From Mycoplasmatales bacterium (lineage in GTDB: Bacteria > Bacillota_I > Bacilli_A > Mycoplasmatales > JABAAY01): a stretch of 43,577 nt of DNA. Shown in pieces: positions 27,001 through 33,000 of this stretch. The stretch is taken from assembly GCA_014238525.1 (NCBI GenBank), contig JABAAY010000003.1, forward strand, positions 1 through 43,577. Direction: 5' to 3'. How positions within the stretch are numbered: position 1 is the stretch's first letter; every line of letters begins with the position of its first letter. The position numbers are program-made.

Positions 27001-30000
27001 TTGTTTCCGCAACAATATGCTTCACCAAGAAAGACATTGAAAGAGACACTCACGAGAATTTAAAACACTTTGAAAGTTTAAAAATCGATGGATTTCCATA
27101 TATTGTCATCAACAATAATAATTTTAACGAAATTGATTTTTTTGCAAAGCAAATTAAAAACGAAACAACGGTTTTAATGGGAGAGTCGGGCGTTGGGAAA
27201 AGCTCCTTATTTAATAATTTACTAGGCTATAAGAAAGCAGCAGAAGGAACAATAAACCGAAAATTAAAAAGAGGCAATCACACAACATCTCATCACGCTT
27301 TAATATCTATATTGGGAGGGTTTTTAATTGACACTCCTGGTTTCATGAAAATAAGAATTGACAATGAAAGCAACAATACCTTGAGTAAAGCATATTTTGA
27401 TTTCAATAAATATGCAACCAAGTGCAAATTTAGAAATTGTTTGCACATACAAGAAAAAGATTGTTTTGTGAAAAGACAAGTAAAAGAGAACAAAATTAGT
27501 GACGTAAGATACAATCTATATAAAGAATTAATCAAGGAGAATAGATAAATGAGTAAAACGATTATTGCGTTAAGCATTTTAAATGTGAATGTTTTTGAAT
27601 TAGATTCTGTTTTAAAAAAAGCAGTAAAGGCTAAAATTGATTGACTTCACTTTGATATGATGGACGGTTATTTTGTAAAAAATTTTAGTTTCAGTTTGAA
27701 TATAATGAAACAAATTAAAGAAAGATATAACATTTTTATTGATACTCATTTAATGATAACAAACCCTGAATATCACGCAGTTCAATTTGCAAATGCTGGG
27801 AGTAATTTAGTTACATTTCACTTTGAAGCGTGCTCTTATTCAGAGATTACACACCTATTAAACGAGTATTCATATACAAAAAAGAGAATAGGAATTGTTC
27901 TAAATATAAACACTAAAATTTCACAAATATATGAATATTTACCAAGATTAGATGTTGTTGTTCTTATGGGAGTGGAGCCAGGCAAAGGCGGTCAAAAATT
28001 CAATGAAAAAGTATTGAATAAAATAGTAAAGTTAAAGGAATATATTCAAAAAAACAATTTAAAAACGTTAATAGAGGTAGACGGAGGCATTAAAATAAAA
28101 GAAGCCAGGCTTTGTAGAGAAGCAGGCGCTGATATTTTGGTTGCAGGAACTTTCTTAACCAAATCTGACAATTTCTCTTCTGATCTTCTTAAATTGAAGG
28201 GTCAGTAAACTTTATACTAAACGAGACATTAAAAATTTAGCCACCAGCTCCAATAAAAAACAAACCACTAATTGTTGAAGCGCTAATAATTTCAAAATTT
28301 TCAACAACAATGCCGGAAATTACAAAATCTACAACAGGAGATGCCCCCGGAGGATCGTTACTAAATAATACAAGCAAACCAGGCGAAGTCGAAAATATTG
28401 TCAAAATGAAAGAAGGGGCGGGCAAGGTAATGCTGCTACCATCTTCCGTCACTTGAAGAATATTTCTTAAGGCGCGTCCCGCTTCTAAAGAGATACCAAG
28501 AGTCACAGAAGAAAGCTCAAAGCCTGAGATATTTAGACTTTCTGCTGTCTCAAAAAGCAAATTTTCAAAAACCGGATTAACGATCTGGTCTTGGGCCCAG
28601 TCTACAAAAGCATTGGTCACTACTTCTGCGTTTGTAGGTGTTTGATTAATAAAAGAAGTAGTTGATGCAGTCATGATCGAATTCCCTGCAGAATTTAAGG
28701 TTGTTGTAATTACAAATGAATTATCTGTATTTTGATAGGTACGCACCCTTATCCCATTAGTAGTTATTGTTAAAGAATTTTGAGCAAACGTTATGGAACT
28801 ATTGGTGGAACTCACTGAATCAAAAGGTTCAGAAATTGTGATCGAGTCAATTAAAGTAATAGAGGAATCAAAATTACGCAGTCTATTAAGCAACACTTGA
28901 TACAAATTGTTTAAAGAGCTGTTTTCTGGGATTCCGCTAATTCCATTTAAAAATACTCCAAAATTTTTATTTACTTCAGTTAATGTAGGCAACTGATTTA
29001 TTTCAGAACTAGATGATGCCTGAGAGATTATATCGCCTCCACCATTGGATGTTATATTTAAAACAAAAGCCTGATTAAAATTGGTATAAATCCTTGAATA
29101 TTCACTATCAGTAAACACAAACAAGCTATTAGCCGCAAAAGATAAAGAAGTGGGACTTGCTGTTACAGAGGTCAAAGGTAAAGAAATGGAGATTTGTGTG
29201 ATTGTTGTTATTGTTTCATCAACATCTTTTAATCTATTCAATATTCCGTTATACAAAGCGCTTTGAGATACGTTACTAGGGGAAGGAATGCCGGTAATGT
29301 CAACTAACGAGCGACCAGAATTAATAATATTTTCTGTCCTTGTTGGAGACGGAATCATGGTAGAAGTGGAAGACGACATTGATATTGCTGAACCGGTGCT
29401 ATCAAGCATTATATCAACAACAAAGGCATTATCTGAATTTACAAAGGTACTCACTATTGGACTGTCAGTTGAAACTGACAAAGAGTCCTGTGCAAAAACA
29501 AGTGTTGAGGATGTGCTACTAACCGATGTTAACGGATTGGAAATGTTTATCGATGTTATATTTTTAACTTCGGGAGAAACAAGTCTAATTCTTTCTAAAA
29601 TTGTAAAGTATAGATGACTCAATGAAATATTTGTTGGCACATTGCTTATTCCATCTAGTGCTCTTCCAAAATTTGCTATGATGTCTTCTTCAGACGGAGT
29701 AGGCTCTATTCCTGAAACAACGCCGATGCTTGTGATTGCATTATTACTTATTTCAACATTTGCCATTGTAACAATAGAAAGAGAGTTACTGAAATTATTT
29801 GAATTTGTTCCGTCGATAGTTAGTATAGACAATCTATTCTGTAGAATTCCAGCAAAATTTCCTGCTCCATCACTAAAGACTGAATCACTTTCGGCATCTA
29901 AAATTGTTATTAAACTAACATTACTCACGGAAGTGTCAATCAATTTAACAGCATTCAACAATGAATCTCACAATACAGACTGACTGGGAACAGACGGTCT

Positions 30001-33000
30001 TTCTGTAGCCCCATTCAATCCATTAACGGCATTTAAAATAACCTCATTATTTAATGGTTGAGCCAAAATGTTGCTTGTTGGATTTTCTATTTGGGGTGTT
30101 CCAATAATCAGGCCCGTCGTTATGTCAACATCAATATCAGAAATGACTATTTCTGAGTTTGGGTTTCGGTAATTTTCAAAAGAGCCACCAACTGTTTGGA
30201 AAGAAATGCTCCCAGCGGAAATATAAGCCTCTGTTCCTGATGTGTTTGTAGTAATAAAAGTATTGATATTAGAAATGCTAATGTTTGTAATTTCACTTAT
30301 GTTTGCATCAACAATTTTTAAAGCGTTCAGAAAAACATTAAAAAACACTGCAGCATTGCTATCGGAAGGAACGGTGGTGGCACCATCTAAATTTCTAACA
30401 CTTGATAAAATTGTTTGAGTAGAACTATAAACAGGAAGAAGTCCAGAGACAGTTGTAGAACCATTAGTTGTGATGTTGGTTCCGTTTACTATTATCCCAG
30501 ACATTACAAAATCAGCATTAGAATTTTGCAAAACAGAAATCTCCGGAATATTAGTGTTTATGGAAAGAATTCCTCTCGCGATTGTTATAGATGTTGAATC
30601 TTCTGAAACTTCTATGAAGTTTTGTATTTCGCTATTTGCAACCAGTAAATTAATAGATAGTATTTGAACTGAAGAAAAATTTCCAGCTAAACTTTCTATT
30701 TGTCTAATAAGTGGAGCCAATAATTGTAATTCATTCAAATCAGTTGGTGGAAAAGCAGAATCAAATTGAGTTATCAAGTTAATCAAGGTCTCCTCCAACA
30801 GTTCTCTAGCTGTTATTTGCGGTTCGAAAACATTTCTAGAAATTGTAATATCTCTAATCTGTTCATTAACAACCAGTATTTGAGTAATAATTAAACTTTC
30901 TGTATTAGTGTACGTTTGAAAAGAACTACCTATTGTGTCCACAGTAATAGAATTAGCGGCCACCGTAACAAAATTTTCTAAACTATTTGTAACAATAGAG
31001 GTTTCTGGATTTGAAATGTTAATTGCGGTTATATCACTAACAGCACTACCATTTAAAGTAAAAGACCTAATAATTTCATTTAGTACAACACCAGCATTTG
31101 TGGATGATTGGGGAATACTGGATAGAGAGTTTAAATCTAGTAGAGCTAAACGCACAGCAGCTACCTGGGCGTTTTCACCAGGATCAGGCACAACATTTCC
31201 AGTGTTGGCGCAGGCTTGTGCCACAACAGACCCCCCAACGGTCAATGCAATAGCAGAAGCAAGGAGGCTAGAAATTTTTCTCTTTTTCTTGTCCATACTC
31301 TAATTATATTATTTTAAAAACAAAAAAAAATAAAAAGTACAGTTACACTATTAAACTAACCCCTTAGAACGTACAAATTTAAATGAAGTAAAATGGTTAG
31401 AAGGCTAAAATATGTAACAAATCGATATATTTCATAAATATGGAGATAGATAGGTCAGTTATTGCAATGCAGTTTGAATTTTTTTTAGTGTTTCGAATTT
31501 GACAGTTTTATGAGCAAGTTTCAACGCATTAATCATAGCTGTAGAATCAGTTGAACCATGTGCTTTTACTACAACACCATTTAATCCCAAAACCAATGCT
31601 CCACCAACTTCTCTATAATCCAATTTTTTTCTAATTTTTCTAAAAATATTAAACGATAGTAAGGCTGCTGTTATGCCTAATGGCGATTTTAAAAGGCTTC
31701 TTTTCAAAATACTTGAAATACTTTTTGCTGTTCCCTCTACGGCTTTCAAAAGTATATTTCCAGTAAATCCGTCACAGAGAATAACATCTATTTCTCCGTC
31801 CAATACAGTTCTTGCTTCTACATTTCCCACAAAGTTCTCTACTTTATTTATCAAATAATCATGATATTCAATGTATTTTTTTGTGCCTTTTCCCGGCTCA
31901 GTGCCAATATTTAGCAATCCGACCTTTGGACTTGGCTTATTTAAAACAAGTGTAGAGAAAACACTACCAAGAACAGATCATTGTCTTAATATTTCGCTGT
32001 TGACTTCTAAAAAAGCACCACCATCCAACAAACAAAAAGGTTGATTTGTGATGGTCGGTATAATGGGCATGAATACCGGTCTTATTACGTTTTTCATCGT
32101 CTTCAAGACTAATGTCGCACCACCTACATAAGCACCACTATTGCCAGCGCTGATAACCGCATCAACGGTTTTTGCTTTTACAAGATTAACAGCTACTTGC
32201 ATGGAGTTGTCTTTTTTTCTAAAAAATGCCAAGTGGGAATCATTGCTATCTAAATGTGTTGATGCTGAAACAAACTCACCATTGAAATCTAAATTTTCTA
32301 TATCTAGATGTTTACTGACTATTTCTTTATTGCCCACAATGTACAAATAAACATCTTTGTTGTCTTTACTAAATTTTTTTGCAGCCTTAATTAAAGGGCC
32401 CGGACCAAGGTCTCCACCCATTAGATCTATCGCTATTTTTATCATGTAATAGTATTATAGTCAAAATTACAATAAAAAATGTTTATCTCAAGAAAATCTT
32501 AAATATAAGAAAAGAAAGGAAAAAAGTAGTGTAGAATAATTTTACTATGAGTAGAAAATGTGACCTATGCGGTAAAAGAAGTTTTATTGGAAGAAGTAGA
32601 AGTCACGCTTTAAACAGTTCTCTTAAAGTTTGACAACCTAATTTACAATATACAACTGTAACAACGCAAAATGGTGATAAAAGAAGAGTGAAAGTTACTG
32701 CTCGTTGTTTGAAAACTTTGAAAAAAAACGGTATGAAGATTAATTCATAACTTTAAATCCATTTACACTATAACATCACACAGTAATTTAACAAAAATAC
32801 TTTTATTCGTATGTGTCAGATATGTCTCACTCTATGTGAGGACCAGATAATCAATAACTACCAGCACCGTAACTTCCTTTTATGATGGCGGGCAAACCAT
32901 TTACTTGGTAACGCGCAACAATTTTTGCGTTTGACGATGGAACAAGATTAAATCAATTACCAGCATAATAATAGACCCAGATTTTTTCTTTGCTTTCTTC

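Follow-up and report, generated by a model that had tools for sequence, protein, structure and literature searches.

A predicted surface lipoprotein with tandem copies of a previously undescribed ~118-residue module in a wall-less Mycoplasmatales bacterium

Lipoproteins make up the exposed surface of wall-less bacteria. The Mollicute multigene lipoproteins (Vsp, Vlp, Vsa, and Vpma and the Lipoprotein_17 type) have signal peptides that are better conserved than the mature chains, are built of tandem units, and occur as several paralogs, some of them in same-strand clusters. Linear arrays of seven to eight small domains with short linkers and an anchor at one end are found in the Ig-like/Big, Rib, and SasG E-G5 stalk proteins. 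We present here LP1, a predicted lipoprotein with likenesses to both groups, encoded on the reverse strand at positions 28237 to 31296 of the first 43,577 nucleotides of contig JABAAY010000003.1 (assembly GCA_014238525.1, Mycoplasmatales bacterium). This whole stretch of 43.6 kb, with a GC content of ~32%, is called the window below. LP1 is, on balance, probably a lipid-anchored, multidomain structural surface scaffold from a lineage-specific family of a wall-less sponge symbiont. Its ~118-residue module constitutes a new domain family relative to the libraries searched (Pfam, NCBIfam, PDB, and BFVD), in a protein of a familiar kind.

LP1 has no sequence match to any of the Mollicute lipoprotein families. 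Its units are folded domains of ~118 residues that are 15 to 44% identical, whereas the Vlp, Vsa, and Vsp repeats are short, near identical, and slippage prone. LP1 itself is a singleton; clustered paralogs with conserved 5′ ends, of the Vlp/Vsa/Vsp type, are seen on a related metagenomic scaffold (scaffold_35, described below). With the stalk proteins LP1 shares a presumed projection from the cell, and one relative, P0017, carries the module as an N-terminal spacer. The stalk proteins are all-beta sandwiches with a C-terminal LPXTG anchor, in contrast to the alpha+beta fold and N-terminal lipid anchor predicted for LP1, which has no Pfam or structural match to them and whose overall predicted template modeling score (pTM) of 0.38 does not support a rod-like rigidity. 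At the level of the single module, the NTF2-like, SnoaL, and cystatin-like rolls likewise pack N-terminal helices against a curved antiparallel sheet. They differ from the LP1 module in helix and strand counts and give no sequence signal with it, and the module stays below the thresholds for NTF2-like membership (template modeling [TM] score of >0.5 and Foldseek E of <1e-3).

Read with translation table 11, the LP1 region is broken into two open reading frames (ORFs) at a TGA codon; with table 4, it is a single complete gene of 1,019 codons followed by a TAA stop. The initial annotation had joined the two ORFs across this TGA (positions 29968 to 29970, reverse strand) into one 1,019-residue lipoprotein, and comparison with relatives bears this out. 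The TGA is codon 443, the sole in-frame TGA of LP1, and falls in helix 2 of module 4; in paralogs, a conserved Trp near residue 443 is written TGA in some and TGG in others. At codon 900, the window has TGG where an 86%-identical ortholog (P0002) has TGA. These interchanges are direct proof that TGA is read as Trp. The adjoining gene, plsX, likewise needs TGA read-through, and both P0002 and a second ortholog, P0001 (>99% identical to the window protein), have the same length as LP1. LP1 is thus one real gene read through TGA.

The predicted N-terminus reads MDKKKRK, followed by ISSLLASAIALTVGGSVVA and then QA-C29. A K/R-rich n-region precedes a 19-residue hydrophobic stretch and Cys29, so that a lipoprotein signal peptide (amino acids [aa] 1 to 28) and the lipobox V-A-Q-A-C can be read from the sequence at positions 31210 to 31296 (reverse strand). 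Substrates of Lgt and Lsp were recognized by a positively charged n-region, a hydrophobic h-region of 7 to 22 residues, and a lipobox whose last residue is an invariant Cys, and LP1 has the charged n-region, the h-region, and the lipobox Cys. Cys29, already assigned to a lipobox at the outset, is the only Cys in LP1; nearly all family members have a Cys at this position, and VAQxC is kept in nearly all relatives. Neither lgt nor lsp was seen in the window, although no search aimed at either gene was made.

Beyond the signal peptide, iterative hidden Markov model (HMM) building divided aa 42 to 1019 into eight consecutive units, typically of ~118 residues, all on the reverse strand. All eight copies align over their full length, with one invariant Asn. 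Module 1 (aa 42 to 160; positions 30817 to 31173), module 3 (aa 293 to 416; 30049 to 30420), and module 4 (aa 417 to 535; 29692 to 30048) were each recovered by self-comparison, HMM, and AlphaFold2, modules 3 and 4 also by comparison with the paralogs; module 1 is the positional ortholog of paralog module 1. Module 2 (aa 161 to 292; 30421 to 30816) is a diverged subtype with the motif VSEDxxSITIARG, recovered by its profile (z = 14.5 against shuffles), by hhalign, and by its AlphaFold2 pattern. Module 5 (aa 536 to 652; 29341 to 29691) is the ortholog of paralog module 5, and modules 6 (aa 653 to 771; 28984 to 29340) and 7 (aa 772 to 888; 28633 to 28983) are LP1-specific duplicates of the module 5 type. 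Module 8 spans aa 889 to 1019 (28240 to 28632).

The strength of the repeat signal varies along the chain. Modules 5, 6, and 7, originally described as three consecutive, nearly gapless copies, are 41 to 44% identical, with 59 to 79 bits in pairwise comparisons; the other LP1 modules are 15 to 33% identical. With module 7 as the query, modules 5 and 6 were found at 64 to 80 bits, and copies at aa ~42, ~161, ~293, and ~417 scored 13 to 25 bits. Three of these had been proposed as diverged copies starting near aa 42, 292, and 417. Across 300 composition-preserving shuffles of each diverged segment, the maximum was 9.3 bits. The periodicity, which the initial annotation had allowed might be purely compositional, is therefore more than composition, since the shuffled controls stay below the real scores. 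The approximately eight tandem copies counted there are upheld by HMM, shuffling, and AlphaFold2 together and become seven firm modules and an eighth that is partial and diverged. At the DNA level, a general repeat search and Tandem Repeats Finder found no repeats of >30 nt within LP1.

Modules 2 and 8 had been set apart as a second module type, at aa ~161 to 291 and ~889 to 1019. Each is indeed the best match of the other, at 33% identity and 22 bits, and the two stand as a subtype. They do not stand as a separate domain: the module 2 type, built from seven full-length family members, matches the main type in hhalign with a probability of 99% and an E value of 7e-18 over 113 columns, and in the AlphaFold2 model module 2 has the same secondary structure pattern as the main type. 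For module 8, the beta body (aa ~945 to 1016) matches the module 2 profile with a probability of 94% and an E value of 1.4e-7. The module scores 27.5 bits against that profile, compared with a maximum of 10.3 in 1,000 shuffles. Homology is demonstrable over the beta body only, not over the ~55-residue head. Module 8 gave no homology signal when pooled with the C-terminal domains of the paralogs and was module 2-like once separated from them. The second type is thus best read, from these profile comparisons, as the same module in diverged form.

A single module, module 7, was modeled with AlphaFold2 from a 16-module alignment, with a mean predicted local distance difference test (pLDDT) score of 93.4 and a pTM of 0.87. 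In this confident model, two helices (residues 2 to 11 and 22 to 38), separated by a loop, pack on a beta body of about seven strands, the first of which is followed by a one-turn helix. A full-length model was built on P0001 with a 19-sequence alignment. Modules 1 to 7 each reach a pLDDT of ~80 to 90 in the same helix-helix-strands pattern, and because the overall pTM is 0.38, the placement of the modules relative to one another is undefined. The model fits, but does not prove, a beads-on-a-string arrangement.

No described family was recognized for the module, in agreement with the initial annotation, which could assign it to none. Whole LP1 gave only subthreshold matches in Pfam and NCBIfam (Desmo_N, 15.4 bits against a cutoff of 25; TIGR02167, 13.4 bits against a cutoff of 30), seven of its relatives gave no match, and when 45 modules were scanned singly against the same libraries, no family matched more than once. 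No match reached the curated cutoff of a described Mollicute lipoprotein domain family such as Lipoprotein_17, Lipoprotein_X, DUF31, or PARCEL/TIGR02167. Profiles of 16 and of 45 modules found no significant match among PDB sequences (best E, ~1). Foldseek searches with the single module returned nothing significant in PDB (best E, 0.15; TM, 0.36) or BFVD (best E, 0.2), and the full-length model reached a TM of 0.1 or lower against PDB.

A word-indexed search of 5.8 billion clusters found only P0001 and P0002. An HMM search run exhaustively over 1.84 billion representatives gave 17 matches, four of which are unrelated repeat proteins. Besides P0001, 13 sequences are true relatives (P0003 to P0012, P0014, P0017, and, by cluster, P0002), making ~14 in all. 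None is named or has a Pfam domain. Nearly all complete members have a K/R-rich N-terminus and the VAQxC lipobox, and they contain one to eight modules; several short members are fragments produced by gene calling with code 11. All relatives are metagenomic, and those that could be traced come from two metagenome studies: samples SAMN14422896 to SAMN14422898 of the sponge Vazella or assembly ERZ26869290. These searches support a lineage-restricted family, in keeping with the lineage-specific repeat proposed initially.

Five tandem, same-strand paralogs of 1,016 to 1,041 aa lie at positions 6908 to 22742 of scaffold_35 (ENA ERZ23489589, locus L004; sample SAMN14422898), with rsmE on one side and dnaJ on the other. 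All five carry a lipoprotein signal peptide and seven modules, together with a distinct ~130-aa domain at the C-terminus. This scaffold is missing from the GTDB representative metagenome-assembled genome (MAG) of the same sample, and it belongs only putatively to the same organism. A further paralog with seven modules lies on contig 15 of MAG JABABL01 (GCA_014238225), which carries an LP1 ortholog. For each of LP1 modules 1 to 5, the best match in every one of the five clustered paralogs is the module of corresponding position, although the proteins are ~30 to 35% identical; because these modules are positionally orthologous, the multimodule architecture is older than the gene duplications. 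Modules 5, 6, and 7 of LP1 all best match paralog module 5. The architecture of LP1 is thus 1-2-3-4-5-5′-5″-2′, the product of an internal triplication and a replaced C-terminal part, and the triplication of one ancestral module position accounts for the three near-gapless copies.

The layout of P0017 (788 aa; L006, ENA ERZ26869290 ctg341430, positions 5811 to 8177), with one N-terminal module followed by ~630 unrelated residues, is consistent with a role of the module as a membrane-proximal spacer. The C-terminal ~630 aa have no Pfam support (E up to 1) and no PDB sequence match. Their motif VDFDIEGDD is reminiscent of GH18 (glycoside hydrolase family 18) chitinase-like enzymes, a putative resemblance on which no claim is based. 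On the same contig, positions 1 to 6600 contain the P0017 N-terminus three times in nested, kilobase-scale inverted repeats that are 98 to 100% perfect. These palindromes are probably a long-read assembly artifact; a real inversion system is not the favored reading.

In the scaffold that we propose, the signal peptide would be cleaved and Cys29 lipidated, leaving a mature chain of 990 residues. This chain would be a beads-on-a-string array in which each bead is a ~118-residue alpha/beta module and the beads are joined by Pro/Ser/Thr linkers of 4 to 12 residues. The modules would act as a structural scaffold, with core and turns conserved and the surface free to vary. The LP1 family may form much of the exposed coat or host contact layer, as an extended, acidic, lysine-free, and cysteine-free stalk or shield. 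Surface exposure, an extended shape, and a coat or adhesion role are likewise what we infer for LP1, and in our view it is neither an enzyme nor a transporter component nor a repeat length-variable antigen. Several points weigh against this proposal. The lipobox is atypical at −2 and −1 (A-Q-x-C), with Gln at −2, and the lipoprotein assignment is a prediction from the sequence pattern. AlphaFold2 gave no model for module 8 (residues 887 to 1019; pLDDT, ~25). The extended shape is suggested by the low pTM, which a shallow alignment of 19 sequences could also produce. Fold comparison covered PDB and BFVD, and a structural relative may exist among uncharacterized proteins. A ligand-binding role for some modules is compatible with the absence of family-wide conserved polar residues and is possible. 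The assignment as a whole is a computational prediction from MAGs only.

LP1 might instead belong to a phase-variable or antigenically variable lipoprotein system like the Vsp, Vlp, Vsa, and Vpma systems of Mycoplasma, with paralogs that are switched or recombined. We regard this as unlikely, although the signal peptides of the multigene family of LP1 are highly conserved while the mature parts diverge, and the five paralogs on scaffold_35 are tandem and on the same strand. Between LP1 and its 86%-identical ortholog, the nonsynonymous rate (dN) is 0.076 and the synonymous rate (dS) is 0.40. The resulting dN/dS of 0.19 is the highest in the neighborhood (0.025 to 0.12 for 18 neighbor genes), which fits a variable antigen, yet it is far below 1 and clearly purifying. 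Since the gene has no DNA-level repeats either, length variation by slippage is unlikely, and these two findings disfavor a classical repeat length-variable antigen. With their positionally orthologous modules, the ~30 to 35%-identical paralogs are ancient and are not being homogenized. LP1 itself is single copy in a conserved housekeeping context, with the order plsX, LP1, rpe in both lineages, and neither a recombinase nor flanking inverted repeats were seen near it.

A variable system could also draw on a T9 homopolymer upstream of the gene. This lies in a promoter-like element at positions 31303 to 31336 (reverse strand), composed of T5-A-T9-G-T5 and then TATAAT (31303 to 31308), separated from the ATG by 6 nt. 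The element is kept in the locus of the 86%-identical ortholog, where the remaining intergenic region has diverged; it was not picked up by a strict sigma-70 scan, and its promoter function is putative. The tract is T9 in one lineage and T8C in the diverged one, without variation within a lineage among four assemblies, and is absent from the upstream regions of the paralogs, points that weigh against a variable system. No terminator or RNA element was found near LP1.

Fast evolution of LP1 was considered separately and ruled out, as its amino acid identity of 86% is within the range of its neighbors (79 to 97%) and its dN/dS is 0.19. Within the gene, dS against the 86%-identical ortholog is 0.10 to 0.34 for modules 5 to 8 (28240 to 29691) and 0.50 to 0.89 for modules 1 to 4 (29692 to 31173). 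The lower values may stem from recombination between the lineages or from conversion within the set of triplicated modules.

A second alternative, in which each module would bind a small molecule or lipid as a cone of the NTF2/SnoaL/lipocalin type and LP1 would be a multivalent surface scavenger or carrier, seems to us still less probable than a variable antigen. Mollicutes acquire lipids through surface proteins, and the weak Foldseek neighbors of the module form a consistent set of NTF2-like rolls, including ketosteroid isomerase, SnoaL cyclases, the LDB1 dimerization domain, DUF4783, and designed curved sheets, with a lipocalin-domain protein among the BFVD matches. All of these matches are nonsignificant, however, with E values of at least 0.15, TM scores of 0.25 to 0.37, and root mean square deviations of 5 to 10 Å. 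Across 45 modules, the positions conserved in at least 50% are a Leu/Ile core, Asn/Gly/Pro turns, and strand Thr/Ser; among polar residues, Asn85 alone is near invariant (96%), and no Asp, Glu, His, Lys, Arg, or Cys is conserved. Because the conserved positions are hydrophobic core and turns, they point to a structural scaffold rather than to a catalytic or metal site, and polar or pocket-forming residues are not among them. The organism's own type II fatty acid synthesis cluster also weakens the need for lipid scavenging. Finally, a compositional artifact of an S/T/N/I-rich ORF as the source of the periodicity, or a joined ORF that is no genuine gene, is excluded, for although the composition is strongly biased and long opposite-strand ORFs occur under code 4, the shuffles never reach the real scores, the AlphaFold2 fold is confident, the full-length orthologs (86% identical) are under purifying selection with a synonymous in-frame TGG/TGA change, and homologs occur in independent samples.

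Two further predicted lipoproteins are encoded on the reverse strand of the window. LP2 (41767 to 43056; 429 aa, with three in-frame TGA codons) has a signal peptide nearly identical to that of LP1 (ending SVTAQAC) and one module-like region at aa ~317 to 421, including the motif TYTN; it is possibly a distant paralog of LP1, tentatively suggested by an hhalign match (E, 0.007; probability, 5%). LP3 (14617 to 15528; 303 aa) has the lipobox SVAVSC, is acidic and Lys poor, and has neither a Pfam match nor an LP1-type module.

The composition of LP1 is as unusual as had been remarked from the sequence at first: Ser, Thr, and Asn make up 14.8%, 10.1%, and 10.2% and Lys 0.5%, against a background of 8.4% Lys. 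The mature chain has an isoelectric point of 4.05 and is Cys free after residue 29, and Asp plus Glu is not raised. Lys amounts to 0.3% in LP2, 0.7% in LP3, and 0 to 0.9% in all LP1 family members. In an FtsX-type permease (35990 to 40183, forward strand), the ectodomains (aa 53 to 471 and 679 to 1258) contain 1.0 to 1.2% Lys and the cytoplasmic segments 12 to 20%. Arg is less depleted than Lys in the extracytoplasmic parts (2.4 to 4.8%). Since LP1, LP2, LP3, the family, and the permease ectodomains are all low in Lys with Arg retained, the depletion is lysine specific and exterior wide. A near-lysine-free exterior in a genome with 32% GC suggests strong selection. No description of such an exterior was found in the literature searched.

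One could go further and combine a genuinely new fold of the module with an organism-wide, lysine-specific purge of every extracytoplasmic protein surface, a joint reading that we hold to be doubtful. In its favor are the 0 to 1.2% Lys outside against 8 to 20% inside, with Arg kept and no marked rise in acidic residues, while the mutational bias at 32% GC favors Lys codons. Hypothetically, such avoidance would evade host reactions directed at primary amines on a naked, wall-less surface. Candidates would be a ubiquitin coat and xenophagy, if the organism is intracellular, or immobilization by transglutaminase or thioester proteins. Mere avoidance of proteases or adaptation to salt would account for the lysine loss less well. 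The lysine-free exterior is a testable signature and may report selective pressure at the symbiont-host interface.

Among species-representative genomes, scanned with a three-sequence full-length alignment, the only one with the LP1 gene is "MAG: Mycoplasmatales bacterium isolate bin5p". The closest MAG, GCA_014238225, is from an uncultured wall-less Mollicute of the marine glass sponge Vazella pourtalesii, with a genome reported as ~0.67 Mb. The main text of the original Vazella paper does not discuss this Mollicute, and a paper on an oyster Mollicute concerns a different MAG. A later source places it in a deep-branching clade of Mycoplasmatota that also includes symbionts of a snail and of a spider (PMC13599016). 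Its relatives include the Biomphalaria symbiont (GCA_001484045) and "Ca. Argiopiplasma dusa". The ~118-residue alpha+beta domain family defined here, previously undescribed and without a relative in Pfam, NCBIfam, or PDB, would dominate the predicted surface of deep-branching, host-associated Mollicutes of sponges, snails, and spiders. The LP1 family offers a handle on how reduced, wall-less symbionts build a host-facing surface and could be used as an antigen or probe to localize the symbiont in sponge tissue.

Two other features of the window concern neighboring genes. An apparently complete type II fatty acid synthesis cluster lies at positions 4100 to 5125 (reverse strand) and 6213 to 13492 (forward strand). 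Pfam domains identify accC, fabH, fabF, fabZ, and a FabV-type enoyl reductase, and the labels accD/accA, fabD, and fabG come from reading the sequences only, without Pfam. Many mycoplasmas rely on exogenous fatty acids, and a full type II cluster is unusual. Adjoining a Ser/Thr kinase gene, a single ORF of 442 aa at positions 24283 to 25608 (forward strand) is an apparent gene fusion, the locus of its ortholog being annotated with guanylate kinase and PP2C phosphatase Pfam domains.

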